The notes: generated from the sequence alone by a model not told the origin. 64,000 nucleotides of DNA from Thermodesulfobacteriota bacterium (GCA_963675595.2 CAXXLZ010000002.1:3264001-3328000), one strand, 5' to 3'. Positions 23,022 to 40,111 are shown, numbered from the stretch's first letter. Program-made: numbers and translations.

Positions 23022-23978
23022 TCAGCCCAGAAAGAAATATCCGGCCCCCACGAGGAACAGCACGGCCATGCGGGCGGCATTGTTGCAGACGATGAGGAGC
23101 ATGGCCTGCCTGGGCTTGAAGATGCTCGTGTAATAGGGCAGTTGGGATCGGATCGCCAAGATCGGCGCTGATACGAAACTGCCGATGATCATGAGCAACA
23201 CCACCTGTTTCGCGGTTAATTCTCCGTTTTCCAGAAGTGCTCCCGCAGCCGCCAACCCCGCGGTGTACTCGCCCGTGAAACGGATCACCAGAACGCTCAC
23301 CGCCTGTGGAGGAAGCCATTCCAACCAGCTTACGCGCTTCAGAAGAACCTGTTCCAGCCATTCGAAAAAACCCAACCGGATCAGTGCGAAGACGGCGACA
23401 TACACGGGCGTTGTGGCGAGGAGAATTCTCTTGATCCTTACCACAAAACGGCTCTTGAAGTTTTCAAACACCTCGCGGCGGGTCGGCCGGGCGGTCTGTT
23501 CGGAGGAGGGGACTTCAACAGGAATCGGGCGGGAGGATCGATTCACGATCCTGCTGATGAGCAGGACCACGGTAAAACGAAGCACGGACCCCAAGTAGGT
23601 GAGGCCCACGTATACGAACGCCGCGGATCCAAGAAAGGAGGCCGTCAGCATGAGCAACATGGGCAGTTCCTGCAACATCAAGGGCAAGGTGTTCAGCATG
23701 TTGGCGAGGACAAGGTCGCGGGTCGTTAATTTCCCTTGTTCGTGGGCTTCAGCGAGCAAGGTATTGGCGGCGATTCCTGAAAAAAAGGCGAAGCACAGAC
23801 TTGCGCCGGCCGTCTGAGTGAGTCTGCCGGCTCGTATCAGGGGACTCGCCAGTTTGGAAATTCGCTGAATCCAGTTCATCGCCTCCATGAAATTGGCCAC
23901 AGCCAGGCTCACGGAGATGAAAAGAACGATCTGGAGGAGGGGCTGGATCAACCCTTCCCGGATTTCATGAAATGTCAT
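23022..23978 (-). CDS. Membrane protein with nucleoside-recognition (Gate)-like domains
   Basis: Multiple TM segments; AFFSGIAANTLLAEA and AIRSQLPYY motifs; same strand as and downstream of cobN-like A. Confidence 0.65.
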   Translation of the reverse strand: MTFHEIREGLIQPLLQIVLFISVSLAVANFMEAMNWIQRISKLASPLIRAGRLTQTAGASLCFAFFSGIAANTLLAEAHEQGKLTTRDLVLANMLNTLPLMLQELPMLLMLTASFLGSAAFVYVGLTYLGSVLRFTVVLLISRIVNRSSRPIPVEVPSSEQTARPTRREVFENFKSRFVVRIKRILLATTPVYVAVFALIRLGFFEWLEQVLLKRVSWLEWLPPQAVSVLVIRFTGEYTAGLAAAGALLENGELTAKQVVLLMIIGSFVSAPILAIRSQLPYYTSIFKPRQAMLLIVCNNAARMAVLFLVGAGYFFLG

Positions 23979-24106
23979 GGTGATGGACCGATTGTCGAGG
24001 CGCCTCCGCGTCCCTCTTTGCGGTCGAATTCGCGATGCATGCCGGGCTCGAATCCTTGAACAGGAAATCGGTTCGACCGGGAAATTGAACGGACGGATGG
24101 ACCAGT

Positions 24107-27100
24107 CTATGATTTCTTCGGATTCATCCGCCATTTGGTGTTCCATTTTTCCACGTCGCCCCGAGTCAGAATATTCACTTTGCCCCCTTGGAATTCCTCC
24201 CGCACCTCCCCCATCGTTTCTTCCATATCGCCTTCAATCTCCAAGGCCGTGATTTTCACGGCTTCAAGCAGGTCCCGGTCCGCATCCCACATCCCTCTCG
24301 CCTGCGCCTCCAACAGACGTCGGGTGATCTCCTCAAGGGCGTAAGGATTGTGAGACCGCAACCAGGTCAGGTTTTCCTTATTCAGGATGTATTTCTCCAC
24401 CACGCCGTCGAAGAGCCGCTTGTCCACCTGTTCCGTAACGGCGCTCCATTTGAAGAGATTTCGGACGCCGGAAGAAACGAGTTCGGCTCCTTGGCCGCCG
24501 TGCTCTTTCAGGCCCTCGATCCAGCGGTCGTTCATGAGCTTGGCGCGAAACGCGGCTTCGACGGCGCTTTTCGTATCGTGGATTTTGTTCTTTCCTTGGG
24601 GGGAGGCATCCGCCCAATACAGCTTGGCGGCTTTGCCTCCCAGCGACTTGGCCGCCATGGATACGGCGCCTTGGCAGGTGGCATAGCATCCTTCATCCAA
24701 AAGGTCGTATTCCGGAGAATATTGCTTCATGTAGGAGACGGATACGTTCTTGAGGTGCCCGGCGTAAAGATCATAAGCTTCTACCCCGAAAGCGTCCGGT
24801 TGGCCGGAAGCGCCGTAGGCATGGCCTCCCCAGTTCACGTAGATTTCGGTCAGGTCCTTATGGTCGTTCCAGGCCGAGGCGTCGATGGCCAAATCCACCC
24901 CGATGCCGTAGGAGCCCGGAGGTGAGGAGAATACGCGAAAACCGGCCAGGCGACGAATTCGATCCATGGAATGGGAGGCCCCCATGGTTTCCCGGAGTTC
25001 CCTCATCCGTTCATCGGTATGTTTGCGGACGAAGTTCCACTCGTGGGGCTCGTCGAGGTCCCCGACGAACAGGACCGCGTGATCGAGGATATCGATGAAC
25101 GTGGGCAGCATGTCTCGCACGATTCCGCTTGTCTGGATCAGCACGTCGATTCTGGGACGGGAGATTGCGCTTCCCGTGTGCAGCAGGACCTTGAGCTCGT
25201 CCAGAGGGATGGGCTCCGTCTTCTTGAATCGGCCGTCGGAAGCCCACACGGGTTTCACGCCCATAAGGTACAGAATCTGGCACAGCACCTCGCCGTCGGA
25301 TTTGAAGCCGTCAATGCTCCAGAGGTTGACGGCCACGCTTTCAGGAAAGGTTTTCTCTTCTGTCAGATACTTCGTCAGAAGCGCATCCGCCCTCTGCTTG
25401 CCGATTTCCCAGGCAGCGGGGGTGGGCAGGGCACCGATATCCACGGCGAAGAAGTTACGGTCCGTGGGCAATGCACGGGTCTTTCCCATGAGCAAGGAGC
25501 CGGCCGGTCCCGGTTCGACGTATTTCCCGTCGAGGGCTCGGAGCAGCTGTGGAATCTCGTTCGAACACTCGACAATCCTCTTGTACAGCTCTCTTCCCCA
25601 GGCCTGTATTATGAGAATCTCGGAATCTCTTCCAAGTTGGGACGGCACGTCGCCCGAAAGGATTCGTCCGATTACCCGGCTTTGCACCGCAAAATCATCG
25701 GACCTCGCGTCCTCGAGTTTGCTCACCACACGGCTCAGCTCCGGCAGACCCTCGGGACTCATTCTCAGCATGCCGGTCAGCATCTGAGCAATCTGTGTTG
25801 CGTTCGGTGAGCGACCGAAGACGTGCAATCCCTCGGGAGCGAAGGAATTTCTTGTCAACTCGATCTGTCGAATCCAAAGATCGGCTTTTTCCGGGAGATC
25901 GTCCATGGGGTCGATTTCATCCGTGAACTTCAGCTTTTTCAGAAGGGGTGCCAGGCGTTCCTTGAGGACCTCGGCTCTATCCTCTTCACGGAAGCGGGCG
26001 GCTTTTTGATATTGTTCGAGCAGGTCCGCGAGTTCCTCCGTTTCCCGGTCCGTTTCCGCAGGTCGATAGACGGGGGTCAGATGGTCCACGATCACCGCCC
26101 GGCCCCGTCGCTTGGCCATCAGCCCTTCACCCGGGACATCCATGCAATAGGGATAGATATTGGGCAGGTCCCCAATGGAGATTTCGGGAAAACAGGCGTC
26201 CGACAGGCCGGCGCTCTTGCCCGGCAGGAATTCGAGCGCGCCGTGCGCGCCGAAATGCACCACGGCGTCCGAGTTTTCCTGAATGTACTTATACGCGGCG
26301 ATCCAGTGATGGGGAGGAGCCAGTTGGGGGTCATGAAGGATACGGCAGACCTCGCCGGTGCATTTGGGACCGTAGCAACCGCGCTTGGGTTGTACCATGA
26401 TACGGATGTTGCCGTACTTCAACCCGGTGACCAGGACGTATTCCTTTCCACCTTCGTTCCACGCCATGCCTTGGCCGGGAAAGGCTCCCCAATCTTGAAG
26501 CAGTCGGTCCCGAGCCGAGTCCGGGAGTTCGTCCAGGTAGGACTCATACTCTTCCGCGGAAGTCTTGTGCAGCACTCCGCCTTTGGCGACGATCTCGTCC
26601 ACCGTGGTCCATCGGAATTCCGATATGGCCTTGCGAGTCATGATGGTTCTCTTGAGGCCCTCGCCGGTCAAAGGAACGTCCTCCAGGAAGTAGCCTCGGT
26701 CCTTCATGGCTTTGAGAACCGAAGCGAGGCTTTCGAAGGTGTCCAGACCCACGGCGGAACCGATGGTGGCTTCCACGCTTCTGCATGGAGCGTTGTGCAG
26801 GACGAAGGTGATGCGTTTTTCTTCATTGGGGAGCTTTCGCAATCGAATCCACTTCTCAAGGCGTCGGCAAAGCGATTCCATTCGTTCCTTCACCGCGACA
26901 TATTCTCCTTGGGGGGTGGGCAATCCGGCGGGCGCCTCCGGTTGGACGGCCGTCAAGGTCGGTTCGATGGCTCCGGCTAATTCAGGTTGAACCAGGGAGT
27001 ACACCATGCTGCTCGGCGGCAGGCCGGCCGGGTCCTCGCGCCATGCCCGTTCGCTTCTGTTGTACAGTCGTATGAGCTGAAACAACGGGACATCCAGCTC

Positions 27101-27865
27101 TCTCAGGAGGGACACGTCCTCGGTTTTCGACAGGAGCCGGCCCGCCGTCAAATTCAGTATCGCCTCAGCGGATCCGCTTCGTTGGAAATATTTGAGCCAG
27201 GGATAACGCCTTTCTTTGGGGAGGGCGCCGTCGTACATGCCTTCACAGAACACGCAGATGGGAAGGAATCCGTGGTTTTCAAGGGTCCGGATCAGGGCGT
27301 CGATTTCTCGAGTCTGCCGTTCCACGAGTTGGCCGTAGTAGAAAAGGATTCCCACGACGGATCTACGGCCACGCGGAGGGTGCTCTTGGTCATACCAATC
27401 GAAATAGTCCGAAGTGGATTCAAAGAATTGGGGGGCGTCGGTATGGTAGATTCCGTCCGTGCGCACGCTTTGGACCGCACCCACGGCCCCTTGGAAGCCT
27501 GCGTGCGAGGCGAGGAAGCGAATGCCGTGTCCGAAATTGTCCGCCGAAAGCCTACTCAGATACGCGCGCATTCTTTCCGCATCGTCGCGGGACAGCGTTG
27601 TAAAATCTTTCGGCATTTCGATGCCGTAACCGAAACGAACGGGCACCGCCGTCATCAGTTCGAGGAGTACGTCGAATCCGGGAATTTCTCGGGACAGATC
27701 GGCCGCAACACAATCGACCCCGCCTTCCAACAGGGCCCGGCGAACCGCTTCCCACCCATACTGGCTGAAGGCTCGAAGTTCGATGCCCTCCGAAGAGAGC
27801 GATTCCGACACCGGTTCCCATAAGCGTCGATTGAACATATGGCCTTGAATCAGCAGGATTCTCAT
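24107..27865 (-). CDS. cobN: CobN/BchH-family chelatase large subunit, paralog A
   Basis: QPELAGAIEP, HFGAHGALEFLPGK, AKRRGRAVIVDHLTP, LPTDRNFF, RPRIDV...SGIVRD and PPGSYGIGV. Confidence 0.88.
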   Translation of the reverse strand: MRILLIQGHMFNRRLWEPVSESLSSEGIELRAFSQYGWEAVRRALLEGGVDCVAADLSREIPGFDVLLELMTAVPVRFGYGIEMPKDFTTLSRDDAERMRAYLSRLSADNFGHGIRFLASHAGFQGAVGAVQSVRTDGIYHTDAPQFFESTSDYFDWYDQEHPPRGRRSVVGILFYYGQLVERQTREIDALIRTLENHGFLPICVFCEGMYDGALPKERRYPWLKYFQRSGSAEAILNLTAGRLLSKTEDVSLLRELDVPLFQLIRLYNRSERAWREDPAGLPPSSMVYSLVQPELAGAIEPTLTAVQPEAPAGLPTPQGEYVAVKERMESLCRRLEKWIRLRKLPNEEKRITFVLHNAPCRSVEATIGSAVGLDTFESLASVLKAMKDRGYFLEDVPLTGEGLKRTIMTRKAISEFRWTTVDEIVAKGGVLHKTSAEEYESYLDELPDSARDRLLQDWGAFPGQGMAWNEGGKEYVLVTGLKYGNIRIMVQPKRGCYGPKCTGEVCRILHDPQLAPPHHWIAAYKYIQENSDAVVHFGAHGALEFLPGKSAGLSDACFPEISIGDLPNIYPYCMDVPGEGLMAKRRGRAVIVDHLTPVYRPAETDRETEELADLLEQYQKAARFREEDRAEVLKERLAPLLKKLKFTDEIDPMDDLPEKADLWIRQIELTRNSFAPEGLHVFGRSPNATQIAQMLTGMLRMSPEGLPELSRVVSKLEDARSDDFAVQSRVIGRILSGDVPSQLGRDSEILIIQAWGRELYKRIVECSNEIPQLLRALDGKYVEPGPAGSLLMGKTRALPTDRNFFAVDIGALPTPAAWEIGKQRADALLTKYLTEEKTFPESVAVNLWSIDGFKSDGEVLCQILYLMGVKPVWASDGRFKKTEPIPLDELKVLLHTGSAISRPRIDVLIQTSGIVRDMLPTFIDILDHAVLFVGDLDEPHEWNFVRKHTDERMRELRETMGASHSMDRIRRLAGFRVFSSPPGSYGIGVDLAIDASAWNDHKDLTEIYVNWGGHAYGASGQPDAFGVEAYDLYAGHLKNVSVSYMKQYSPEYDLLDEGCYATCQGAVSMAAKSLGGKAAKLYWADASPQGKNKIHDTKSAVEAAFRAKLMNDRWIEGLKEHGGQGAELVSSGVRNLFKWSAVTEQVDKRLFDGVVEKYILNKENLTWLRSHNPYALEEITRRLLEAQARGMWDADRDLLEAVKITALEIEGDMEETMGEVREEFQGGKVNILTRGDVEKWNTKWRMNPKKS

Positions 27866-27922
27866 GTTCGTCTCCCCGATTGCGGCATAGGACGACCGGA
27901 GTCGTCTCGTCGGCGAATCAAT

Positions 27923-27954
27923 AAAAAAACCCCCTGTCTCGAAAAGACAGGGGG
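27923..27954 (-). terminator. Attenuator terminator of riboswitch 2
   Basis: Minus-strand CCCCCTGTCT-tttcg-AGACAGGGGG followed by T7. Confidence 0.75.
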
Positions 27955-28053
27955 ATTGCACCCGGTTTCCTTCATCCCCTAAATAGATGAGGGATCTCTC
28001 GGATCCTCAAGAGGCAACGGGAGCCTCACGCTCCCTCACTCTCATCTTATGAA

Positions 28054-28213
28054 ACCGGCAGGTCTTCTGGCTCTCGGATCACCCTAATCCCCGCGCCTTC
28101 CCAACGGATTTTCTCCGACAGTGGCCTCGTGCGGGTTTCGTTCCCGATCACAGCGGCGGGACCGCGACGAATTCACATCGTCTTCCCTATTGTTCCTTCT
28201 TAGAAGGACCGAT
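28054..28213 (-). promoter_or_regulatory. Cobalamin (B12) riboswitch 2
   Basis: Minus strand: AATAGGGAA...GCGGTCCCGCCGCTGTG...GCCACTG...GGGAAGG...AGCCAGAAGACCTGCC. Confidence 0.93.
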
Positions 28214-28372
28214 TCCGTTGAAAGCTCTATCCAAGAGCGCCGGCGGAGTCAAGTACAATCGCACGAACCGTTTGAAGACCCCGCTTCCCCGGACTATGTT
28301 TCACACGGGAGTCAGGATTAACTATGAATATCGAACTGTTATGGCCTCTTTCGGGAGCGGGGGATTTGTTGG

Positions 28373-28400
28373 TTGACAGCTTTCCCTTTTTCGATATGAT
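28373..28400 (+). promoter_or_regulatory. Sigma70 promoter upstream of riboswitch 3
   Basis: TTGACA, 16-nt spacer, TATGAT. Confidence 0.65.
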
Positions 28401-28412
28401 TGTCTTTACGTT

Positions 28413-28566
28413 AACAGGTGCTCATCCGAGCTGAAAAGGGAATCCCGTGAAAATCGGGAGCGGTCCCGCCGCTGTGATCGGGGATGCGTCCGCTAATGCC
28501 ACTGTCCGGAAAGGACGGGAAGGCGCGGTCGCCGAACAGACCCGAGAGCCAGAAGACCTGCCTGTT
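28413..28566 (+). promoter_or_regulatory. Cobalamin (B12) riboswitch 3
   Basis: AACAGGTGC...AAAAGGGAA...GCGGTCCCGCCGCTGTG...GCCACTG...GGGAAGG...AGCCAGAAGACCTGCCTGTT. Confidence 0.95.
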
Positions 28567-28631
28567 GGACCTTCTATAGCAACCCCGCGGTAAGGGTTTC
28601 GTAGTATGACGACGGTTTTTCGGGCAGCTTG

Positions 28632-28677: not shown

Positions 28678-28733
28678 ATGCTTGAAAGCCCCCGTCGGCG
28701 AGCCTCGGGTCCGGAAGTCGGATATCGCGGGAT

Positions 28734-29525
28734 ATGAAGTGCGGGAGCGTGCGGATGTCCGGCATCCCTCCGGGGGAGGCGACATTTCAAGGGGCGGTGC
28801 TCCTTTATCTTTTCGGGTTCTTCGCGTCGCTTTTCAGAGCTCGGCGCTTGAGCCGGATATCGATCGGTCTGGGATTGTGCTCGAACCTGCTCTCCGCTGG
28901 GGCGAGATATTACAATGCCTGGCCCCTCCTTCCTCTCTTTCAGGGACCTTTTTTCCTTCCGCTGTTTTTCGGTGTATGCTGCACATCCCGCTTCCGGGAC
29001 GACCACCCGAAGGTCCCGCTCTTCAGCGGGGCGTTGGCCTTGATGGGCTTGACGGCCCTCTTCTTTCCCAATGATTTCTATGTTCCGTTCCTTAAATCGA
29101 AGACGATCTTTTCCCACCTGTATTTCGTCTTCGGCGTGGTGGGCCGAGCCTGCTTTTTCATGAGCGCCCTCTGGGCCGTTCTGTTCCTCATCGACAACAA
29201 GAATCAAAACAAAGGCGGAATGGGTCCCGTTTACACTTGGGTTGTCCGGGGATTTGTTTTCTGGACCCTTTCCATGTTTTCAGCGGAAGCCTGGTCGTAC
29301 TTGAGTACCGGATACCCGGTGGTCTGGGAAGATGCTTCCATGACCACGACCATTGCGGCCTGGTTCTATTATGCCTGCTTTCTTCACCTGCATCTTTACG
29401 GGGTCTGGAGCCTGAAGTTCAGGTCCATCTTCGCGGCAATAGGCGCCGTTGTCGTGTTCACGTTTACCAGTTATCCGGAGCTTGGGGCGTTCCGGATTCC
29501 CGAATTCAGATGGGCTCGGTTTTGA
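28734..29525 (+). CDS. CcsA/ResC-like (cytochrome c assembly family) membrane protein
   Basis: About 8 TM segments; GFVFWTLSMFSAEAWSYLSTGYPVVWED (degenerate WWD motif) and W..YACFLHLH. Confidence 0.7.
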   Translation: MKCGSVRMSGIPPGEATFQGAVLLYLFGFFASLFRARRLSRISIGLGLCSNLLSAGARYYNAWPLLPLFQGPFFLPLFFGVCCTSRFRDDHPKVPLFSGALALMGLTALFFPNDFYVPFLKSKTIFSHLYFVFGVVGRACFFMSALWAVLFLIDNKNQNKGGMGPVYTWVVRGFVFWTLSMFSAEAWSYLSTGYPVVWEDASMTTTIAAWFYYACFLHLHLYGVWSLKFRSIFAAIGAVVVFTFTSYPELGAFRIPEFRWARF

Positions 29526-29820
29526 CTCGTATTTGGGACTTCTGGTGCAGCGTCCGACTGACGGTGCTGTTGCTTTTTTTGATTATGATCGATCTTTGGA
29601 TCGGTTATTTCGTGCTCGAATCTCACAAGAGTTATTTTGTTCCGCTTAATCAACTCGGATTGACGGAGTGGGCCGGTACGTATGGTATTACGCATCCCTT
29701 GATCACGAGTTGGTTTTTTGTTCTTGTTTTTCTACTGGCCTCTTTGGGGTTAAATACGTTTGTTTGCACCACCGACAAGCTGATTTCATTACTTCGTGCA
29801 TATTCATCGTTTCCAAGCTT

Positions 29821-31696
29821 GATGCCGTCGTAAGAACCCCCCTTTACGAACAGGGCTGTTTTTTGGAGCATTGGAAGTTCAAGCGGCCATTGCAACACTG
29901 CCAAGGTTACTGTCATCGTGACATAGGCTACAAAGACGACGGAAATTATCGTTGCTGCCTCCCTCTATCGAGTTGGAAAGGGCCTTCTTGGCCTTATCAA
30001 GGCGGCTCTGGACGAACCTCTTGATGTTGATGGCCAGGGCCTTCATGAAAACAGATAAGGTGACCCGTTTTTTGCCTCGGGTCCACGATCGTTTCAATCC
30101 CGTGACCCGATCCGCTTCGGAGATGGTGGCCTCGATGCCGGACCGGATTTTGTAGCGTTCTTTGAAATCATGGCTTTCCTGCTGTAGTCTGCGCTTGGAG
30201 GTCGCCATGTCCTTGCGCTTGTACTTCAGTCGATAATTTCCGCCCTTGATCCGTTTTACCGGACAGATGGGGAGAAATTCGCATAGGAGACAGTGCTCGC
30301 GGGAAAACACGGCTTCCACCGCTTTGCCGCGGTCAACGATCTTGCATTCAAGTGGCGCGTGCCCCCGGATACAGTAAACGACCTGGGTGCAGTCCTCGTT
30401 CGTTTCAAAGTCACTCAACTGCATCTTATTGAGATCCGGCGCTTTTCCGCAAGTCACCGGAGCGGTAAGCTCGACTCCGTGCTCGTGAGCTTGAAGGATG
30501 TTCTCGCCGCTGCCGTAGCCTGCGTCGGCGAACAACTCTTCGGGTTTGCGGCCCGTTTCCTCCAGGCGTTCGATAACGGGCATCACGTCTTTCTGGTCGC
30601 TGTCATAGGAAGGGGCCACGTCCACATCGGTGATCACCTGGAAGGGATTTTCCTTCACGCAGGTCTCCGTGAGGGAAGCCTTATATCCTTTGCCCTTGCG
30701 CCCATAGGTGGCGTCGGGATCCGAAGGATTCTGCAGGGAGTCCGCAGGGATTTCCTTGGGCTTCTCGAGTTCTGTTTTGTCGGGATCTCCCTCGGTGAAA
30801 CGGCATTGCTCCGACAGTAGTCGGGCCATCAGCCGGTATTCTTTCATTCGGCTGATTTCCGGATGACCTCGGAAGCGGTCCACCAGGTCGGCGAGATGGC
30901 GGGCGGACTTGTCCAGACGACGCTTGGCCCGCGATGATTTTGCATCGGCAAAATAGCCTGCGCGCTTCAAGTAGGCCTTGTCGTAAAGTCGGGGCAGTTT
31001 CTCATACAACTTGGGATGTTTCTTATGGAGCCGTTTCAAGAACGCCTCGATGGTGCGCGTAAAGAGCCCCAGACGGCTCAGATGAGCCATGTTGGAAGTG
31101 ATCTGTGTGGAGTCCAACCGCTGTTTGTCCGTGCTAAGGGCCGCCGTCTCGATGATGGCGTCCGTGATTCCGGTAAAGAGGCTCCGCGCTTGCTTGTTGT
31201 CGGTAATCAAGGTCCGGAAATTGTGCAGGGTCTTCTGGCAGACGTGAGATTCAAAGGCGTTGATGTTGAAGGCATATTGCCAACGCAGATCGAAGTCCAG
31301 AGCGCCCAAGACTTCCGCATCGGTCAGGCTGTTCATTTCCTTCAAAACACACGCTCCGACAAGGATGGCCACGGGTCTGTTGGGCCTGCCGTTGTCCTCA
31401 CAGTAGAAAGGCCGGAAAGACTCCTCATCGATCATGGGAAGCACCAGGCGCCGGAACGGACCGGCCCACGTCTTCTCCAACGCCTCGATCCTGTCTGCGG
31501 GAAGGCAAATATCGTGGTCGAAAATGGTCTTTTGCGTTCTCTTAGGCCGAAACAAAACAACCCCCCTAAGGACCATATTATTAATCAAGTCAGATACTTA
31601 TCATACAGGACCCAAAAGAAAGGTCAACCCATAAATGCCATTTTTATTCATATTTTCAACTAGATACCTTTACGGAGAGGTTTTTACGAACTCATC
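29821..31696 (-). mobile_element. IS1182-like insertion sequence (1876 bp) with AAGCTT direct repeats
   Basis: Imperfect IRs GATGCCGTCGTAAGAACC / GGTTTTTACGAACTCATC; AAGCTT at 29815-29820 and 31697-31702. Confidence 0.88.
29879..31588 (-). CDS. DDE transposase (IS1182/IS5-like, DUF772 plus DDE)
   Basis: GRPNRP, RLDSTQI, LQNPSDPDATY, GYK, ADAGYGS and YKIRSGIEATISE; start uncertain. Confidence 0.88.
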   Translation of the reverse strand: MINNMVLRGVVLFRPKRTQKTIFDHDICLPADRIEALEKTWAGPFRRLVLPMIDEESFRPFYCEDNGRPNRPVAILVGACVLKEMNSLTDAEVLGALDFDLRWQYAFNINAFESHVCQKTLHNFRTLITDNKQARSLFTGITDAIIETAALSTDKQRLDSTQITSNMAHLSRLGLFTRTIEAFLKRLHKKHPKLYEKLPRLYDKAYLKRAGYFADAKSSRAKRRLDKSARHLADLVDRFRGHPEISRMKEYRLMARLLSEQCRFTEGDPDKTELEKPKEIPADSLQNPSDPDATYGRKGKGYKASLTETCVKENPFQVITDVDVAPSYDSDQKDVMPVIERLEETGRKPEELFADAGYGSGENILQAHEHGVELTAPVTCGKAPDLNKMQLSDFETNEDCTQVVYCIRGHAPLECKIVDRGKAVEAVFSREHCLLCEFLPICPVKRIKGGNYRLKYKRKDMATSKRRLQQESHDFKERYKIRSGIEATISEADRVTGLKRSWTRGKKRVTLSVFMKALAINIKRFVQSRLDKAKKALSNSIEGGSNDNFRRLCSLCHDDSNLGSVAMAA

Positions 31697-32209
31697 AAGC
31701 TTGTATAGGTTTGTGTTCAAGTTGTCTCCACACTTAATGCATTATGCCGTATTGGTAATTTTATTGGGTTTTCTCGTGAGCTACCTGACGTCGTCCGTTT
31801 ATCCGGGAAAGATATTGCTTCCGAATACACCAATCAATCTGCCCGGATCGTCCTTTTCCATGGTCATGAAAGCAATGGACGTCGAGTTCTACAACGGGTC
31901 TCGGTTGGGGTTTTTAGAGGATCAAGCCATGGAAGTGACCGCGCGGGTCGACTTTCGGGATCAGGAAGGTCGGCCGTTAAAGGAAGCCGTTCTGGCCGTC
32001 AATCGACCGGTGTGGTTTCAAGGTATGAGCATTCACATCAAAGACTTCGCTCCGCGATCCAAAAGAGGAATGCCCCAGCGGGACCACGTCGCGGTGATTA
32101 TCAAACGGGATCGGGGTATTTGGCTCTACATCGCCGGCACGGTGCTGTTTACCTTGGGATTGCTCATGTATTTCCATGAATGGGTTCGAAAAAGGCAAGG
32201 GAAGTGGTG

Positions 32210-33337
32210 ATGAAGAGACTCAACAGAATGATCGGATGGTGCTTGCCCGTCGTCTGCCTGACGTTGCTGACGCTGTGCGGTTGCCTGCAAGGTCGGCAGG
32301 AAGGCGAAGGCTTCATCAACGTGGGGGAATTTACAGTCAAATCCCTCGACAACGGCTTGAAAGAACTGAGGGACGGACAGGGGCGCCGACTGGTTCTCGT
32401 ACCCAGGGGTCAACAGGCCCCCCAAGGCTTTCGCAAGGAGGAGATCGTTCCCATACCCGTTCGTCGCGTGGTTGCCTATTCCACTCAGGAAGTGGCCATG
32501 TTTCGAGCTTTGGGAGTGTTGGATACGCTCGTGGGCGTCACCACCAGGAAATGCGATTGGACGATGCGAGAAGTGGCTCGCGGGATGGAGGAAGGGAGAA
32601 TCTCCTACCTCGGCGATTCCACTTCGGTGGACCTGGAGCGTTTGAAAGCCGCTCGTCCCGAAGTCGTTTTCACTTGGGACCAGAGTGTTGTCCCCATGCT
32701 CGAAACCATGAACATTCCAGCGGTGATCACCTACACCGGCAGGGCCATGGACCTCGAGACGCGAGTTCGATTCATCCAATTCCTCGCGCCGTTTTTCGGA
32801 AAAGAACGGGAAGCCGATCGTTTCGTAAAAACCGTTTTGGAGACCATTGCTGAGATTCGCCGAAAAACGGCCGACGTCAAACACAGGCCCAAAGTGATTT
32901 GGGGGGATATCTACGAAAAACGGGTGATGGTGGAGCCGGGGAATTCATGGGTGGCGGAAATGATCAAGCTCGCCGGAGGAGACTATTTGTTCGAGGACAT
33001 CGGCGGCAGCCATTGACTGGAAATCACACTGGAAAGGTTTCTTTCCAGCGGAACCCGGGCGGATGTCTTCTTCACCTATCGAACGCCCCAATTCGGAGTG
33101 TCGTCCAAGGACGCCATCATGAGCATCAATCCCTTGATCAGAAATATCGCGCCCCTCAACCCCGCGGGTGAAACCTTTTCACCCTATCCGCTGTACGCGC
33201 AGTCCGGAGACGAACTGGCCGACGTCATCCGGGAAGTGGCTTCGATCCTTCATCCGGAGCTTTTCCGGCGGGAAAGAATCAAGTACTTCAGACGGCTTCC
33301 GCAGGAAGACCCCATGGATCGGACGGCGAGGAGATAA
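32210..33337 (+). CDS. ABC substrate-binding lipoprotein (BtuF/FepB class), putative selenoprotein with Sec at TGA 33014-33016
   Basis: Lipobox LTLCG-C; PVRRVV, VDLERLKAARPEVV and LAGGDYLF motifs; frame continues after TGA (LEITLERF...ILHPELF) to TAA 33337, which overlaps the permease ATG; SECIS-like hairpin downstream. Confidence 0.85.
33029..33048 (+). promoter_or_regulatory. Putative bacterial SECIS element
   Basis: Perfect 8-bp stem CTGGAAAG/CTTTCCAG with G-first loop GTTT, beginning after a 12-nt spacer from the in-frame TGA. Confidence 0.72.
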
Positions 33338-34359
33338 TGTCTGTAGGGAAAATCGACACAAACCACGGGATCGTGTTTTCAGCCTCTCTCGTCCTGCTGG
33401 TATCCGCGTTTGTCGTCAACGTGCTCATGGGGTCCGTGGAAATCTCTTTGGGACGGCTGGTGGAAATCGTGACTTCTTTTTCCACCGACGGCACCGAAGG
33501 ATTCATTGTTTGGAATATCCGAATGCCCCGGGCCGTGGCCGCGGCGCTGGGCGGTGCGTATCTCTCCGTGGCGGGTCTGCTGCTTCAGGTGTACTTCCGC
33601 AATCCCGTGGTGGGTCCGTTCATTTTGGGCATCAGTCACGGAGCGACTCTCACCGTATCGGTGGTCATGCTCACGAGTTACGGTTTGGGGCTGCCCCGTG
33701 TCAGTCCGTTCATGAGCACGATCGCGGCCTTCATCGGGGCCTACGGGACCATGGCGGTGGTGATCGGTATCGCGAGCAGACTCAGAAGCGGCATTACGTT
33801 GCTCATCACGGGACTGATGATCGGCTATTTGTGCATGGCCGTCACGAACGTGCTCATCGCTTTCGCCGAGCAGGAGAAGATCAAAGGATTCGTGCTCTGG
33901 CAATTGGGAAGTTTCGCGGGTTTCAAATGGATTGAAATCGAAGTCCTGGTCTACGTGGGGTGCTCGATCCTCACCGGCGTCTATCTTCTGAGCAAGCCCC
34001 TGAACGCTTTCTTGCTGGGAGAGGAATACGCGTCCACCATGGGGGTCAATATTCGTTTATTCCGGATTCTGATTCTTCTTTGCGCCTGCGCCCTGGCCGG
34101 CATGGTGACCTCCGTGGCGGGACCGGTGGCCTTCGTGGGACTTGCGGTGCCTCATCTGACGCGACTTTGCTTCGGCACGTCGGACAACCGCATTCTGATC
34201 CCCGGGGCCGTTCTCATGGGCGGCGCCGTGACCTGTCTTTGCGACCTCATCGCCAGACTGGTCTTCGCTCCCGTGGAACTACCCATCAGCGCCATTACGG
34301 CTCTGTTCGGGGCTCCCATCGTCATCAGCCTGCTCCTCAAGAAAGGAGCCTACATATGA
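33337..34359 (+). CDS. FecCD/BtuC-family ABC permease
   Basis: IRMPRA, QVYFRNP..GPFILGI, LNAFLLGEEYASTMGV and GPVAFVGLAVPHLTR. Confidence 0.92.
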   Translation: MSVGKIDTNHGIVFSASLVLLVSAFVVNVLMGSVEISLGRLVEIVTSFSTDGTEGFIVWNIRMPRAVAAALGGAYLSVAGLLLQVYFRNPVVGPFILGISHGATLTVSVVMLTSYGLGLPRVSPFMSTIAAFIGAYGTMAVVIGIASRLRSGITLLITGLMIGYLCMAVTNVLIAFAEQEKIKGFVLWQLGSFAGFKWIEIEVLVYVGCSILTGVYLLSKPLNAFLLGEEYASTMGVNIRLFRILILLCACALAGMVTSVAGPVAFVGLAVPHLTRLCFGTSDNRILIPGAVLMGGAVTCLCDLIARLVFAPVELPISAITALFGAPIVISLLLKKGAYI

Positions 34360-35597
34360 CCCGTCCCGTTCCAAGAACTCGGGTCATTGAAACGCGCAAC
34401 CTGGCCGTGGGTTACGGACCAAAGGTCGTTCTCGACCATTTGAACGTTCATGTGGACGAAGGCAGTTTCGTAAGTCTCCTGGGACCCAACGGAGCGGGGA
34501 AGACCACGTTTCTCCGGACTCTGGCGCGCCTACTCCCGGTAATCAAAGGCAGCGTGTTCATTCGGGGAAAGGAGTTGGAGCTCTACTCGGCATCCGAACT
34601 GGCCAGGCGCCTTTCCGTTGTGCTCACGAACCGGGTGTCCCCCGGACTGTTCACCGCCTTTGAATTCGCGGCGCTCGGCCGCTATCCGCACACGGGGTTT
34701 TTGGGAAAGTTGAGCGACGCGGACCGAGACGTCACCCGGCATTGCCTGAAACTCGTTCATGCGGAAGACTTGGCGGAGCGGCGTCTGGATACCCTCAGCG
34801 ACGGTGAGCGGCAGAAAATCCTGGTGGCCCGCGCACTGGCCCAGGAGCCCAAGATCATCCTGCTGGACGAACCCACCCTGCATCTGGACCTGAAACACCG
34901 GATCGAATTGATGGCCATCCTGCAGCGCCTTTGCCGGGATGAGGGTATCTCGGTGGTGGCCTCGCTTCACGACGTTGATATCGCCGCGAAAGTTTCCGAC
35001 CAAGTGGGATTGATCAAAGGAGGAACCTTGATCCGGTGGGGTGCTCCGGAAGATGTTCTTCAGGAAGACGCGGTAGCGTCTTTGTACGACTTCAACGGCG
35101 CAAGTTTCAATCGCCGGCTGGGGAGCATCGAACTAAAGGGCGGCGGGGGGCGACAACGGGTTTGCGTGATCGCGGGAATGGGCAGCGGCGCGGTCTTGTA
35201 TCGTCTCTTGGCCAAACGGGGATACGTCTTGTCCACGGGAGTGCTCCCCTCCAACGACGTGGATGCCTACGTGGCCGCTTCCCTTAGCGCGGAGTGCGTG
35301 ACCAACTCGCCCATGGAAGCGATTTCCGATGAAGCGTTCCGGAAAACGAAGGAGCATATTCTGGAAGCCGATTTCGTTATCGACGCCGGCTTCGAGGTGG
35401 GCTCTTTGAACGAAAGAAACGTGGAACTGCTTCGGTTCGCCATGGAACAGAACAAGCCGGTTTACGGGCGATTGCCCGAGGGCGGCGTCGTTCCGCATCG
35501 GAACGGGGTGAGCTCCCGCATACCGTTCTATGCTTCGGAGCATGAGTTGATTGAAGAGGTGGAGGCGGCTCTTGCCCGAAGAAGGCCGGAGGCATGA
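34356..35597 (+). CDS. FepC/BtuD-family ABC ATP-binding protein with C-terminal extension
   Basis: GPNGAGKTT, LSDGERQ and LLDEPT; extra ~150-aa C-terminal domain. Confidence 0.92.
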   Translation: MTRPVPRTRVIETRNLAVGYGPKVVLDHLNVHVDEGSFVSLLGPNGAGKTTFLRTLARLLPVIKGSVFIRGKELELYSASELARRLSVVLTNRVSPGLFTAFEFAALGRYPHTGFLGKLSDADRDVTRHCLKLVHAEDLAERRLDTLSDGERQKILVARALAQEPKIILLDEPTLHLDLKHRIELMAILQRLCRDEGISVVASLHDVDIAAKVSDQVGLIKGGTLIRWGAPEDVLQEDAVASLYDFNGASFNRRLGSIELKGGGGRQRVCVIAGMGSGAVLYRLLAKRGYVLSTGVLPSNDVDAYVAASLSAECVTNSPMEAISDEAFRKTKEHILEADFVIDAGFEVGSLNERNVELLRFAMEQNKPVYGRLPEGGVVPHRNGVSSRIPFYASEHELIEEVEAALARRRPEA

Positions 35598-35679
35598 TGC
35601 GGTTTGCCTTTTTCTGGACGTCTCCCGATGCCGGCTGTTCGGTGCTCGGTGGAGGCTTTCGACATTGCAGGGAAGAGTG

Positions 35680-37689
35680 ATGAACGGAAATCAGGGTTTT
35701 CCCTTTTCGGCCATTGTCGGCCAGGAGAATTATAAGCTCGCCCTGATCCTCAATGCGGTCAACCCTCGGGTGGGGGGCGTGCTCATCCGAGGGGAAAAGG
35801 GCACCGCCAAGTCAACGGCGGTCAGGGCTCTGGCGGACCTGCTTCCGCGGGTCGAGGTGGTGGAAGGGTGCGCTTATGCGTGCGATCCCGGACGGCCCGA
35901 GGAACTCTGCGAATCCTGCGAAAGGCTGGGAGGGTCGATGCCGACGAGGCTGAAACGAAGGCCGGTGGTGACGCTGCCTCTGAATGCCACGGAGGATCGC
36001 GTCGCCGGGGGTATCGACTTCGATTCGGCCGTCAGGCAGGGCGTGCGGGTGCTTCAGCCCGGGCTGCTGGCCAGGGCGCACCGGGGGATTCTTTACGTGG
36101 ATGAAGTGAACCTGCTGGACGATCATCTGGTGGACATCATCCTGGATGCGGCGGCTTCCGGAGAAAACAGGATCGAAAGGGAGGGCGTCTCCCATCGCCA
36201 TCCGTCCCGTTTCATTCTGGTGGGAACCATGAATCCCGAGGAAGGCGAACTGCGTCCTCAACTGCTCGACCGTTTCGGCCTCTGCGTGGAAGTGACCGGG
36301 GAGCAAGACATCGAGAAACGTATGGAACTCATGAAACTCCGGGAGGAATTCGATTCCGATCCGAAGGGGTTCGTCCAGCGTTTCGCCGAGGAAAACAGGG
36401 AGATCGCCGCCCGCATTGATCGGGCCTGTGCCGCGCTGGAAACCGTAAGAATGGCCAAGCACCTCCGTTCCTTCATCGGTGAGCTCTGTGGGGAAAACCA
36501 TGTGGCCGGGCATCGCGCGGATTTGGTCGTCGAACAGGCGGCCAGGGCTTTGGCTGCTTATATGGGGCGCGGCGAAGTCACCGTGGAGGACATTCAGGAA
36601 GTGGCGCCCATGGCCCTGATGCATCGAAAGCGGGATGTCGCCCCACCACCTCCGCCTCCTCCGCCCGAGCCCGAAGACCGGCCTCCGGACCAAGGGGAAG
36701 CCGAGTCCGGGAAGGAACAGCAAGAGGAGCCGTCTGAAAAGACACCGTCGGAGGAGGAGAATGAAGCGCTTCCGCCCCAAGACTTGCCTCCGCCTGATCC
36801 GGGCGAGAAAGAGCGGGACCGAGAGGGGGAACAAGACGTTTTGGAGCGGATTTTTGAGGTGGGGGCCACCTTCAAGGTGAGAAGCTTCCAGGCGCGAAAG
36901 GATCGCCTCCTGCGGCGAGGTTCCGGCAGACGTTCCCGTTCCCGGGTATCGCAGAAACAGGGTCGCTACGTAAGAAGCACGAACCGGGAAATCAACGGAG
37001 ACATCGCATTGGACGCCACGCTTCGGGCGGCGGCGCCCCACCAGCTCAGGCGCAGAGGAGAAAGCGATCTGGCGGTATGCCTGCGCCCGGATGACATACG
37101 GGAAAAGATTCGGGAAAAACGTATCGGCAATTTCCTGCTCTTTCTGGTGGACGCCAGCGGTTCCATGGGGGCCAGAGGCCGGATGGCCGCATCCAAGGGA
37201 GCCATCATGTCCTTGCTGCTGGATGCTTATCAGAAGCGGGACCAGGTGGCCATGGTTTCATTCAGAAAGCGGGAAGCGGTGCTGAACCTACCTCCCACCT
37301 CCTCCGTTGAAATGGCCGGAAAGCTCCTGGAAGAAATGCCCGTGGGGGGGCGGACTCCTTTGGCTGCGGGCCTGGTAAAGGCATACGAAGTCCTGAGAAG
37401 CCGGCTTCTGAAAGACCCGTCGTCCAGACCTTTTGTAATCGTCATCACCGACGGAAAAGCCAATGCGGGGCTCGGTGAAGGGAGCCCGTTGGATGAAGCC
37501 TTCGCTTTGGCGAGCCGATTGGCGCTGGATGAAAGGCTCCATTTCATCGTGGTCGATACGGAAGAGGAAAACGTGGTTTCCTTCGGCCTTGCCCGCAAAC
37601 TGGCCATGATTCTGAGAGGGAGCTATTTCAGGATCGAAGACCTCAAAGCGGAGAACCTGGTGGAAATCATCAAAGGAAAGGCTGCATGA
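35680..37689 (+). CDS. chlD: Chelatase subunit D (AAA+, Pro/acidic linker, VWA)
   Basis: [52 protein letters not shown] linker and VDASGSM MIDAS motif. Confidence 0.88.
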
Positions 37690-38732
37690 AGAAGGGACCC
37701 ATTTACCCGTTTACCGCCATTGTAGGCCAGGAAAAGATGAAGCTGGCCCTTATTCTCAATGTGATCAATCCGACCCTGTCGGGAGTGCTGATTCGCGGCG
37801 AAAAGGGCACGGCCAAGTCCACCGCGGTGCGCGCACTGGCCGAGATTCTGCCGGAAATCCAGGTGGTCGAGAACAATCCGTTTCAATTGTCTCCCGAAGA
37901 GGTTCGCGAACAGGAAGGGGACCTGTTCCAAGTGGCCGGGCGCGAGCAACCGGCGTCCGACGGAAGACCCGCAACGATCCGACGGAAGGTCAGGGTGGTG
38001 GAACTACCCGTGGGCGCCACGGAAGACCGCGTTGTCGGCACCCTGGACCTGGAACACGCCCTCAAGAAGGGAGAGAAGCGGATCGAACCGGGTATCCTGG
38101 CCTCCGCTCACCGTGGGATTCTTTATGTGGACGAAGTGAACCTGTTGGACGATCACGTGGTGGACGTCTTGCTGGATTCGGCGGCCATGGGAGTCAACAC
38201 CATCGAGCGCGAGGGCGTTTCTTTTTCGCATCCGGCTCGATTCACATTGGTCGGCACCATGAATCCCGAAGAAGGCGAACTGCGGCCCCAGCTTCTGGAC
38301 CGTTTCGGCTTGTGCGTCCATATCGAGGGCATCCACGAGCTGGAAAGTCGCGTGGAAATCATGGAACGTCGCGCCGCATTCGAGGAAGACCCGGAACGAT
38401 TCGTGGAAAGATGGGCTCCGGCCTCACGGGAACTCACCGAAAGAATTCAACGGGCCGGCGAACTTTATCCTCAGGTGGAAATGGATCGGTCTCATTTGAG
38501 TGAAATCGCCCGCTACTGCTTGGACGTGGGCGTGGACGGTCATCGGGGCGATATCGTCATTCTCAAGACGTCCAAGACCCTGGCTGCTTATCACGGAAGG
38601 ACCCGGGTGGAAGAGGAGGACATCGGGCAGGCCGCGGAACTCGCCTTGCCCCATCGGATTCGCCGTCAACCGCTCCAGGACGTCGTGTTCGACGTGCGCG
38701 GCATGCAGCCCGCTGGGGGAGGCGTCGTGTGA
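37686..38732 (+). CDS. chlI: Chelatase subunit I (AAA+ ATPase)
   Basis: [36 protein letters not shown] and DGHRGD. Confidence 0.9.
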
Positions 38733-38879
38733 CAGGGCGTTGAAAGACACGACCTGCGGCGTTGCGTTGCATGTCGTCGTTCTTACGTAGGCTGCAGCAC
38801 CTGCGTTTTTGCGGCCCGGCGGGCATGTATTGGGAACGGCAGGCCTAAAGCGAACCTTCGACCGTGGTAATCGTTGAAG

Positions 38880-39998
38880 ATGAAGGGCGACACGCGCAAA
38901 GAGGAATTCGCACCCCGGTATCTGGTGTTGTTCGTAACCACGGCGTGTAATCTGCAATGTCCCTATTGCTACGCAGACGACCTACGGGCAAAGAAGCCGA
39001 TGCCGTGGGAGGTGGCGGAGGCCGCTCTCAACCGGGTTGCGCACGGCGGCTTTCCGTTTCATGTGCAGTTGACCGGCGGTGAACCCACGTTGGAACCGGT
39101 TCTGGTCGAGAAGATCGCGTCTTGGTTGCGTTCCCGGCGACTACCGGCAAAAGTGGCTCTTCAAACGAACGGCACATGCTTGGACGAAGGGCTGGTCCGG
39201 ATTCTTCAAGAAAGAGAAGTCCAAATCGGTGTAAGTATCGACGGGTCTCCCTCGGTCCACGATCGCATTAGAGGCGGCGTTGTCGGGACGCTGAAAGGAC
39301 TGGACCTGCTGAGTCGCATGGGGGTCCCTTTCCGCACGACAACGGTGGTCACCCAAAGGAATGCGGCCGTCCTGGACCAGCCGGCGCTGATGCTCGCACG
39401 ATATCCGAATTTGCAGGGTATGGCTCTGGACTTGCCGGTACGTAAAGGGCGCATGATTTCAAGGGGCGAAGCGCTCTGTTGCGATCCGGAGTCTCTGGCT
39501 GCCGGCGTTGCCAAGCTGGTGAAGACCATCGACAGACTGAACGGGACCCGCCGACACCCTATTTCGCTGAGAGAATGGGAGAGGCTGCGTTCGTCGAGAA
39601 GAGAGGCGGCCCCAACGGACTATTGCCATGCATGCCGGGGCGAAAGCATGGCGGTTTTGCCGGACGGGTCCGTTTATCCCTGTTCCCAGACAGCCGGGGA
39701 TCCGGCGCTGCAATCGGGCCGGATCGACCGATGGGAATCGGTCCGACCGCGGATGCTCGGGAGGCGCAGTCTCCGTGAGGTTGCCGGGGAGGATTGCAGG
39801 ACCTGTATTGCGGAGCCTTTCTGTCCCGATGATTGTCCAAGCCGATTGCGCTACAACGACCCGCCGACCATCAAATCGGCGTGCGTTCTCTATCGCACGA
39901 TTGTCTCGTTGAGGGCCGGCGGAAGAGACGACGGCGAAGCGTGGACTTCGAAGGACGGTTCGTTCCGACGGGCGGCCCTGGATAAGGGCGACGGGTGA
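38880..39998 (+). CDS. Radical SAM protein with SPASM domain
   Basis: CNLQCPYC, TGGEP, QTNG and SIDG; SPASM cysteines CHAC...YPC...CRTC...C...C. Confidence 0.88.
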   Translation: MKGDTRKEEFAPRYLVLFVTTACNLQCPYCYADDLRAKKPMPWEVAEAALNRVAHGGFPFHVQLTGGEPTLEPVLVEKIASWLRSRRLPAKVALQTNGTCLDEGLVRILQEREVQIGVSIDGSPSVHDRIRGGVVGTLKGLDLLSRMGVPFRTTTVVTQRNAAVLDQPALMLARYPNLQGMALDLPVRKGRMISRGEALCCDPESLAAGVAKLVKTIDRLNGTRRHPISLREWERLRSSRREAAPTDYCHACRGESMAVLPDGSVYPCSQTAGDPALQSGRIDRWESVRPRMLGRRSLREVAGEDCRTCIAEPFCPDDCPSRLRYNDPPTIKSACVLYRTIVSLRAGGRDDGEAWTSKDGSFRRAALDKGDG

Positions 39999-40111
39999 TG
40001 AGTCGGGAGAGTCCGCAACCGTTCGTCGAACGTTCGTTCTTCCTCGACTTCACAGCGAAGAAGGCGCCGTCGCGGTGAGTCGACTCCTCAAACCAATGTG
40101 AGGTGTCTCCT

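Follow-up and report, generated by a model that had tools for sequence, protein, structure and literature searches.

What could a gene pair that resembles the cytochrome c synthesis machinery be doing at the head of an operon controlled by vitamin B12? This question is raised by a 64,000-nt stretch of DNA from a Thermodesulfobacteriota bacterium (GCA_963675595.2, CAXXLZ010000002.1:3264001-3328000), referred to here as the window. In this DNA, the first two genes behind a cobalamin (B12) riboswitch encode proteins resembling CcsA and ResB of cytochrome c synthase System II, and the next gene encodes a BtuF-type lipoprotein that is read with an in-frame TGA as selenocysteine (Sec). The original prediction for the locus, made from the sequence alone, saw in the two genes a miniature CcsA/ResB pair repurposed as a channel for a cobalt or other tetrapyrrole, which might be delivered to the Sec residue of the lipoprotein. 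The comparative evidence described below supports well the conclusion that the pair stands, as a conserved module of two genes, at the head of B12-riboswitch operons that also encode a cysteine/Sec (Cys/Sec) importer, chelatase subunits, a radical SAM enzyme and a TonB-dependent receptor. Equally well supported are the conclusions that the pair is a diverged paralogue of System II CcsA/CcsB (ResB), located in a small Desulfobacterota clade of its own, and that it is not the cytochrome c synthase of the cell.

The gene pair leads B12-riboswitch operons

The riboswitch ahead of the pair, a confident match to the Rfam cobalamin model (Table 1) and thus as originally described, is one of three cobalamin riboswitches in the window and ends 155 nt before the first ATG (28734) of the CcsA-like open reading frame (ORF). 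The 263-aa ORF described earlier is indeed present (28734-29525), although its homologues begin at the equivalent of Met8, and the protein is therefore probably 256 aa long. The genes that follow are packed tightly. The ResB-like ATG (29510) is located 16 nt ahead of the CcsA-like stop codon, such that the two genes overlap, and the ATG of the adjacent lipoprotein gene (32210) has one base in common with the ResB-like TGA. The earlier remark that no CxxCH cytochrome gene lies nearby also holds, as CxxCH, CxxxCH, CxxxxCH and CxxCK motifs are absent from all 15 proteins and protein fragments encoded in the B12 cluster (21446-45791).

A scan of one genome per species yielded 71 loci carrying the pair, nearly all of which are labelled Desulfobacterota or Deltaproteobacteria. 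A BtuF-type gene follows the pair directly in 65 of these loci, and is itself usually followed by genes for BtuC, a long BtuD, and then CobN or ChlI/ChlD homologues. Three of the six loci lacking an adjacent BtuF-type gene end at a contig edge, and three genomes whose pair is unlinked encode the orthologous binding protein (>550 bits) elsewhere. Matches to the ResB-like protein were obtained with tblastn in 69 of the 71 loci. A script identified a single intact ResB-like ORF in 68 of the 69, wherein the remaining case failed only through a 3-nt overhang of the match beyond the end of the ORF.

Riboswitch control is similarly widespread. In a sample of 10 loci, six were confirmed with Rfam to have a cobalamin riboswitch within 700 nt upstream, and an nhmmer profile built from the confirmed seeds was then used to survey all 71 loci (Table 1). 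Of the 67 loci for which upstream sequence exists, 59 have a riboswitch ahead of the pair on the same strand.

The proposed co-occurrence of the pair with the Cys/Sec binding protein is borne out not only by this gene order but also by an even sample of 401 genomes from the phylum. The binding protein was detected at E <= 1e-60 in 22 of these genomes and a strong CcsA-like match (at least 223 bits) in 19, all of which are among the 22. In every one of the 19, the CcsA-like and binding-protein genes reside on one contig within ~2.2 kb of each other. In two further genomes of the 22, the same position is occupied by a CcsA-like gene with a weaker match (103 and 96 bits). The family is small: a search of 1.84 billion proteins gave 50 cluster representatives at E <= 1e-30. 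This conserved, B12-repressed place within a tetrapyrrole uptake operon points to a job other than the making of cytochromes.

Two individual loci have unusual arrangements. In one (L018:7768-7958), a second complete cobalamin riboswitch (111 bits) is situated between the CcsA-like and ResB-like genes. In another (L050:3591-5618), no stop codon separates the ResB-like frame from that of the lipoprotein, and together they form a 675-codon ORF. A genuine ResB-lipoprotein fusion is probably not what this represents, given that the lipoprotein keeps a GTG start, a signal peptide and a lipobox.

The two proteins are related to CcsA and ResB

The original prediction called for profile searches with PF01578 and PF05140. 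PF05140 reached 36.1 bits (cut-off 24.6) on the ORF at 31635-32210, which includes the 3′ piece of the ResB-like gene, whereas PF01578 fell short on the window copy of the CcsA-like protein, as considered below. A precomputed PF01578 flag is attached to 38 of 40 CcsA-like homologues. More sensitive comparisons with hhalign relate each family to the canonical proteins encoded by the same genome. The CcsA-like profile (A1, 18 members) matches the canonical CcsA with a probability of 96.9% (E 1.3e-10, 194 columns), and the ResB-like profile (A2) matches the canonical ResB (451 aa), likewise with a probability of 96.9%. The CcsA-like window protein scores 28.2 bits against TIGR03144 (cut-off 187.6), a model that the canonical CcsA of the genome matches with 289.8 bits. 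An intact ResB-like homologue has no match in NCBIfam, and hidden Markov model profiles of both families searched against Protein Data Bank sequences retrieved nothing relevant.

Structural modeling is consistent with this relationship. The AlphaFold (AF2) model of the CcsA-like protein (pLDDT 79.6) gave Foldseek matches with a probability of 1.00 and weak E-values (0.02-0.1), and for this reason a second look with VIA was needed. By this method, the model aligns best with CcsBA (7s9y; Z 18.3, 242 residues aligned) and CcmF (6zmq; Z 18.1, 244 aligned). Other matches include a second CcsBA structure (7s9z, Z 13.2) and CcmC (7f02_C, Z 11.4), and the best chain outside the family (Z 11.4) is level with CcmC. 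These sequence and model comparisons show that the two proteins are homologues of CcsA and ResB, and place the pair in the haem-handling family as defined in PMC10663686. The likeness that was originally noticed thus stands. The description "miniature" is apt for the ResB-like protein (272 versus 451 aa) but not for its partner, as the canonical CcsA of this genome is itself only 281 aa long. ResB-like proteins range from 259 to 289 aa, and the periplasmic part between transmembrane (TM) helices TM3 and TM4 is cut to ~110 aa.

The pair is not the cytochrome c system of its host. The 6.79-Mb genome carries a canonical ResB and CcsA operon ~0.5 Mb from the window pair (locus L075), and the CcsA protein of this operon bears the motifs WGTYWSWDPK and GLHSY. 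A canonical CcsA bearing both motifs is also encoded in each of seven further pair-carrying genomes, chosen because the survey listed a second CcsA match in them. A maximum-likelihood tree (50 sequences) splits 29 main-clade and 6 sister-clade proteins from 15 canonical or hemA-linked CcsA proteins with support of 100/100, and the main clade occupies one side of a branch with 91/92 support. The comparison with true CcsBA proteins that had been proposed therefore places the window protein in a separate clade.

The genome also encodes a third PF01578 protein (L073, G000:C2:39774-43391), which is hemA-linked and has the motifs WRWDPME and GYHSY. Its gene is located between a 248-aa ORF and the ORF that contains the hemA-type glutamyl-tRNA reductase. 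To judge by the sequence, the 248-aa ORF may be siroheme-synthase-like and the arrangement HemX-like.

P-His2 is lost while P-His1 and the TM histidines are retained

The histidines FSHLY, FLHLH and HLMHY of the original description are all present. The CcsA-like ORF contains FSHLY (H128), WSYLSTGYPVVWED (187-200) and FLHLH (H218/H220), and HLMHY is found in the C-terminal piece of the ResB-like protein. Their conservation was assessed in an alignment of 29 CcsA-like members, the window protein included, and in an alignment of 28 ResB-like members. H218 aligns with the TM histidine of the CcsA half (canonical "LLH") and is His in 29/29 sequences, whereas the TM histidine of the CcsB half (canonical "VVHSS") corresponds to the second His of PHxMHY, a residue that is His in 28/28. 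H128 aligns with P-His1, the His of canonical "LIAH", and this residue is conserved in 28/29.

P-His2 presents a different picture. According to the available portion of PMC10663686, both P-His residues are required for synthase function, P-His2 resides in the loop after the last core helix, and CcsBA adds one TM histidine per half. All eight canonical CcsA proteins of pair-carrying genomes (the window genome and the seven others) end in GLHSY. In the CcsA-like clade, no conserved His follows the last core helix in any of the 29 sequences, and the tail instead reads P[E/D]xGPFR, with its acidic residue kept in 29/29. The His pattern therefore departs from the original picture, in that the two TM residues and P-His1 are kept but P-His2 is absent across the clade. 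Likewise, the WWD motif that was described as degenerate is largely a feature of the lineage, whose consensus WSYLGWGxPVVW[DE]D has three invariant Trp residues, and only the lack of the middle Trp is peculiar to the window. The ResB-like protein additionally carries an invariant Cys in its NTFVCTT motif (28/28).

By these alignments, the clade keeps the bis-His site of the inner leaflet and one half of the outer site, and has lost a residue that the synthase needs. The loss of P-His2, along with the separate ResB and CcsA genes of the genome, argues that the pair does not mature cytochromes in the manner of a canonical system.

The adjacent lipoprotein carries an invariant Cys or Sec

The protein encoded directly downstream of the pair is a Peripla_BP_2 lipoprotein when its TGA codon is read as Sec. 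Among 63 loci, the key codon is TGC or TGT in 52 and TGA in 11, and it thus always specifies Cys or Sec, within a motif of the form G-x-S-[C/U]-I-E-I. A second Cys, at position 184 in the numbering of the L002 protein, is present in 26 of 27 Cys-type proteins, whereas 10 of the 11 Sec-type proteins, that of the window included, have Asp or Asn at this position. In a redox pair, the resolving Cys would be kept next to Sec, and so the pattern at position 184 fits a ligand pair better than a redox pair. An 8-bp hairpin, a candidate SECIS-like element, is present downstream of the TGA but is not significant (z -1.18).

The AlphaFold model of the lipoprotein (pLDDT 78.7) places the Cys/Sec site (position 272 in L002 numbering) inside a low-confidence stretch (257-273), and position 184 adjoins another (180-182). 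The best fold match is to CeuE, followed by the haem binders PhuT, ShuT and HutB. In CeuE, the metal of the chelate is contacted by His227 and Tyr288; the matches themselves show only that variants at these two positions were crystallised. The available portion of a 2026 selenoproteome review lists a "BtuF CxxU" selenoprotein (PMC13188914). This entry was ruled out as a match, its motif being unlike G-x-S-U-I-E-I.

A possible role in tetrapyrrole handling

The reading that we favor, and that we hold with roughly equal measures of belief and doubt, is that the pair forms a repurposed, importer-coupled tetrapyrrole-handling module. In such a module, a metal-tetrapyrrole would be held between one His of each partner at the inner membrane leaflet, as in CcsBA, and a second site facing the periplasm would be formed by the WWD loop and P-His1. 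If P-His2 has been replaced by the invariant acidic P[E/D]xGPFR tail, then one outer axial position would be left for a partner, and the invariant Cys/Sec of the lipoprotein could be that partner. The pair would then form a station in the membrane, at which a corrinoid-type tetrapyrrole passes to or from the importer's binding protein. This exchange might be a direct hand-over, or it might involve a CcmF-style electron transfer in which a bound haem loosens the Co-S/Se bond. We presume a corrinoid-like cargo in view of the riboswitch and the neighboring BtuCD and CobN genes. The channelling of a cobalt-tetrapyrrole, its delivery to Sec, the direction of cargo movement, and contact with the lipoprotein are parts of this proposal rather than observations. 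The evidence is compatible with either hand-over or CcmF-like reduction, and with either a corrinoid or haem as the ligand.

More specific versions can be imagined, in which a branch of the haem-handling family works on a corrinoid or exports a cobalt scavenger; even taken jointly, we regard these versions as doubtful. In the first version, the lipoprotein would capture a corrinoid by a cobalt-thiolate or cobalt-selenolate bond. The pair, with haem between its TM histidines, would take over the cargo or reduce its metal at the WWD/P-His1 site, and the cargo would be released to BtuCD. In the second version, the pair would export a metal-free tetrapyrrole made by the cell as a cobalt scavenger, which would be re-imported via the TonB receptor and BtuFCD and processed by CobN/ChlID.

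Several observations weigh against a corrinoid-handling module that depends on the importer. The window copy of the CcsA-like protein scores 27.8 bits against PF01578 and does not reach the cut-off of 29.9. The middle Trp of the WWD motif is kept in 28 of 29 members, and the exception is the window protein itself, which reads STG at this point. No riboswitch was found by nhmmer at 8 of the 67 loci for which upstream sequence exists. One genome (G216; L089, G216:C103:1-3244) encodes a divergent Sec-type binding protein with the motif GGT-U-MWVTPEKF and a riboswitch directly upstream; no pair is present on its 3.2-kb contig, and this 94%-complete genome has only a canonical-level CcsA match. Related importers can thus do without the pair. 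Furthermore, a shared gene order is by itself a weak argument that the pair touches the lipoprotein. Finally, the cargo could be haem, which is the known ligand of the family, and the nearest NCBIfam model to the lipoprotein, though a weak match (E 1.5e-5), is the haem binder IsdE.

Some of the same features might be explained by a transmembrane electron conduit that moves no tetrapyrrole at all. A stable b-haem between the TM histidines would carry electrons from the quinol pool to the periplasmic face, where Co(III) or the Cys/Sec adduct on the binding protein would be reduced, as in CcmF. Reduction labilises the axial thiolate ligands of cobalt corrinoids, which speaks for this explanation, and the CcsA-like model matches CcmF as well as it does CcsBA (Z 18.1 versus 18.3). 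In addition, the changes in the clade affect the outer site and leave the TM histidines invariant, and PMC10663686, in its available portion, contains a section on CcmF entitled "An electron reduction conduit". However, the sequences are nearer to CcsA/ResB, in which the TM haem is in transit, and the only NCBIfam match is to TIGR03144. One of the histidines is supplied by a ResB-type partner, and no quinol site was identified in the pair. For these reasons, we view a conduit-only function as unlikely.

A sister clade and the case for haem attachment

A short ResB-like neighbor also accompanies the proteins of a sister clade, which give CcsA-like matches of 96-133 bits and come from other families of the phylum. 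A member of this clade scores 56.7 bits against PF01578. Neither a BtuF gene nor a riboswitch was detected at the sister loci. In three of four sister loci examined (Table 1), the next genes encode a signal-peptide protein, an APC-family permease, and a TonB-dependent receptor. The signal-peptide protein has weak Oxidored_molyb similarity and is either joined to, or followed by, a tetrapyrrole methylase domain. The sister clade therefore provides a second link between such pairs and tetrapyrrole genes, and its operon looks to be a tetrapyrrole-related system that is likewise undescribed. The sister CcsA-like proteins lack His at the aligned positions of both P-His1 and P-His2.

The sister loci also provide the clearest support for a different explanation, in which the pair is a dedicated haem-attachment enzyme. 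Haem would be exported and covalently linked to a private substrate, either the lipoprotein Cys/Sec or an unlinked apoprotein. The signal-peptide proteins at two of the three sister loci contain CSSCH or CAACH, which counts against the tetrapyrrole-handling module and keeps a synthase role alive. Haem attachment is moreover the ancestral activity of the family, wherein NrfI and CcsA1 attach haem to special motifs. In the main clade, both TM histidines, P-His1 and most of the WWD motif are kept, and the product of the gene that follows is exported and has an invariant Cys. From the sister clade, haem attachment to a private substrate may also have been the ancestral job.

Against this explanation, the CxxCH stretch is deleted from the third sister-clade protein, and for this reason the motif was not accepted as proving that the pair is a synthase. 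CxxCH and CxxCK are absent from all 15 proteins and fragments of the window cluster, no His flanks the lipoprotein Cys in G-x-S-C/U-I-E-I, and B12 control makes little sense for a haem protein. We also know of no precedent for Sec at a merely structural thioether. Most importantly, P-His2 is missing in 29/29 members, yet a synthase needs both P-His residues, according to the available portion of PMC10663686. We consider haem attachment quite unlikely on balance, and a repurposed tetrapyrrole-handling module remains the reading that we prefer.

A recent insertion sequence interrupts the ResB-like gene

The 272-aa ResB-like ORF of the original prediction does not exist as such in the window. The gene is cut into pieces of 104 and 168 codons by a 1874-bp insertion sequence (IS) with an 8-bp target duplication (Table 1), and the span of 28734..32210 that was originally assigned to the pair took in this element without saying so. 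Imperfect terminal inverted repeats are located at 29814-29838 and 31679-31703, and the outermost eight bases of both are the palindrome CAAGCTTG. Reading CAAGCTTG as the target duplication sets the limits of the IS. When 1882 bases (the IS and one copy of the duplication) are removed, codon 104 joins the TAT at 31704 in frame, and a gene of 272 codons is reconstructed.

These boundaries are confirmed by three types of evidence. First, the genome contains 21 full-length copies of exactly these 1874 bp, all with identities that round to 100%; by score, 20 are identical and one is 4 bits lower. Second, the 5′ piece aligns with intact homologues over their residues 1-104, and when 28 of these are aligned with the window gene (A2), its two pieces abut with no loss and no overlap. 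Third, a 5914-nt contig of run X5, which is labelled as a different organism and study from the window genome, represents an IS-free allele. It covers 28700-29813 and resumes at 31696, skipping the 1882 bases; eight letters fit either side of the joint, and there are 11 other differences over the ~1.7 kb covered. The ResB-like gene is thus broken here by a recent, strain-specific IS insertion, and is intact in a near relative. Because this insertion knocks out the ResB-like gene, the CcsA-like/ResB-like module is most likely inactive in this genome.

Such a disruption could be viewed as a sign that the pair is a decaying or accidental neighbor, a degenerate and functionless duplicate of the cytochrome c system. 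The weakened WWD motif and sub-threshold Pfam score of the window CcsA-like copy, as well as its broken partner gene, would fit this view. It is contradicted by the conservation of the pair across loci, given that 68-69 of 69 other loci, from many genera, have both genes intact and in synteny, and that many residues are invariant. The insertion itself is recent and confined to the strain. We therefore regard decay as highly improbable, and return to the conserved module as the better account of the pair.

The element is an IS in apparent expansion. In run X1, its depth is ~290, compared with 21-24 for the flanks, and it looks to have expanded recently. None of the runs listed as containing the stretch is an RNA run. 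Two copies are located in tandem 9 nt apart elsewhere in the genome (C2:3852925-3856681). In contigs of three runs, the right end of the IS is joined to its left end with TA between them, which means a circular intermediate or a tandem copy. We take the element to be of IS1182 type. With elements of this type it shares a DDE transposase with DUF772, DDE_Tnp_1 and DDE_Tnp_1_6 domains, terminal inverted repeats, a target duplication and a high copy number. The only oddities here are the palindromic 8-bp target and the end-to-end joint with TA seen in three runs.

Other features of the window

The remaining genes of the operon include those for importer and chelatase components (Table 1). The BtuD-type ATPase has a C-terminal extension of ~150 aa without a Pfam domain, and its best NCBIfam match, under the cut-off, is NF007082, "corrinoid ABC transporter ATPase" (positions 3-350 of 402, 230.7 bits). 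The 5′ piece of the ResB-like gene is separated from a 3′ piece that encodes the PHLMHY helix, a periplasmic domain of ~110 aa and the last TM helix.

The two other riboswitches of the window precede different genes. Riboswitch 2 (28040-28228, minus strand) drives two genes, one for a CobN of 1284 aa and the other for a membrane protein of 374 aa that has a "Gate" nucleoside-recognition domain; these genes (23022-28228, minus strand) are divergent from the CcsA-like operon. Riboswitch 1 (21108-21290) precedes the gene for a 487-aa signal-peptide protein without a Pfam match (21108-22909). ESM Atlas scores for this protein reach only ~0.8, with weak leads to beta-propeller surface proteins (DUF5074, XusB-like), and it is possibly a surface protein that binds corrinoids. 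At 7017-7515, a tRNA gene is directly followed by group II intron domains (RF02001 and RF01998).

Table 1. Coordinates of the B12-riboswitch operon and its insertion sequence in the window, with the sister-clade loci and the outcome of the riboswitch survey
Feature	Position	Strand	Details
Cobalamin riboswitch aptamer	28399..28579	+	Rfam RF00174, 122.1 bits (gathering threshold 31.5), model positions 1-189 of 189
CcsA-like gene	28755..29525	+	256 aa from Met8; ORF opens at 28734 (263 aa)
ResB-like gene, 5′ piece	29510..29821	+	104 codons: TM1, TM2, NTFVCTT motif
Target duplication, left copy	29814..29821	.	8 bp, CAAGCTTG, palindromic
Insertion sequence	29822..31695	-	1874 bp, DDE transposase inside
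DDE transposase of the IS	29879-31588	-	569 aa; PF13751, PF01609, PF05598
Target duplication, right copy	31696..31703	.	8 bp, CAAGCTTG
ResB-like gene, 3′ piece	31704..32210	+	168 codons (31704-32207) and stop codon 32208-32210
BtuF-type (Peripla_BP_2) lipoprotein	32210..33337	+	PF01497, 59 bits; in-frame TGA at 33014-33016
BtuC-type permease	33337..34359	+	PF01032, 253 bits; NF003001, 197.5 bits
BtuD-type ATPase	34350..35597	+	PF00005; start approximate
ChlD-like	35551-37689	+	Pfam scan
ChlI-like	37686-38732	+	Pfam scan
Radical SAM	38874-39998	+	Pfam scan
CobN-like	40103-43885	+	Pfam scan
TonB-dependent receptor	43749-45791	+	Pfam scan
Sister-clade loci	L085:1035-7771; L086:1485-8234; L087:609-7355		
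Riboswitch within 700 nt upstream			45 of 71 loci
Riboswitch further upstream, same strand			14 of 71 loci
No riboswitch found			8 of 71 loci
Upstream sequence missing			4 of 71 loci

Significance

CcsBA-type proteins serve as a model for the movement of haem across a membrane, and to our knowledge every characterised member makes c-type cytochromes. If the proposed role is correct, then the haem-handling family would be extended to another tetrapyrrole task, and either of the two specific versions would give a CcsBA-type machine its first demonstrated function outside cytochrome synthesis. The lipoprotein would be the first selenium-ligated B12-type binding protein, and the system would offer a handle on the acquisition of corrinoids or cobalt by strict anaerobes of sulfidic habitats. 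Furthermore, the IS-broken allele described here and the intact allele of a near-identical relative constitute a natural knock-out pair.

In the literature searched, the presence of a CcsA/ResB-like pair in B12 operons is undescribed. No link of ccsA, resB or the WWD domain to a cobalamin riboswitch or to cobalamin was found, in a search that left subscription journals mostly uncovered, and queries that combined cytochrome c assembly with a B12 riboswitch, cobN and btuF found nothing. The pair is also not mentioned in the available portion of Rodionov 2004 (PMC545781).

Comparison with known systems

The CobN-like BtuS/HmuS systems of Bacteroidota resemble the window operon in combining a TonB receptor with a CobN-like protein and ChlI/ChlD-like proteins for tetrapyrrole uptake by anaerobes, as described in the available portions of PMC6460266 and PMC12583661. 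A proposal treats BtuS as a form of CobN that differs from the chelatase of biosynthesis (Rodionov 2003, cited in the available portion of PMC6460266). The Bacteroidota systems act on haem iron, whereas the window system is B12-regulated. Neither a CcsA/ResB-like pair nor a Cys/Sec binding protein is mentioned in those portions of the two accounts.

CcmF of System I (6zmq) has an equal structural likeness to the CcsA-like protein (Z 18.1). Its TM histidines hold a stable b-haem used for reduction, according to the available portion of PMC10663686, and the pair also has TM histidines. In contrast to the pair, CcmF is one large protein with both P-His residues and works with CcmH and CcmE, for which there are no such genes in the window cluster.

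The closest counterparts are the CcsBA and ResB-ResC proteins of System II, represented by Helicobacter hepaticus CcsBA (7s9y/7s9z) and by the canonical pair of the genome itself. With these, the window pair shares a two-protein build with one TM histidine in each protein, a WWD loop, P-His1, a four-TM core fold, and adjacent overlapping genes. It differs in that P-His2 is absent, the ResB-like domain is short, and there is no CxxCH substrate. The gene order is also reversed, with CcsA before ResB here and ResB before CcsA in the canonical pair of the same genome. Unlike System II, the window-type pair is controlled by a B12 riboswitch and is linked to a BtuF-type importer.

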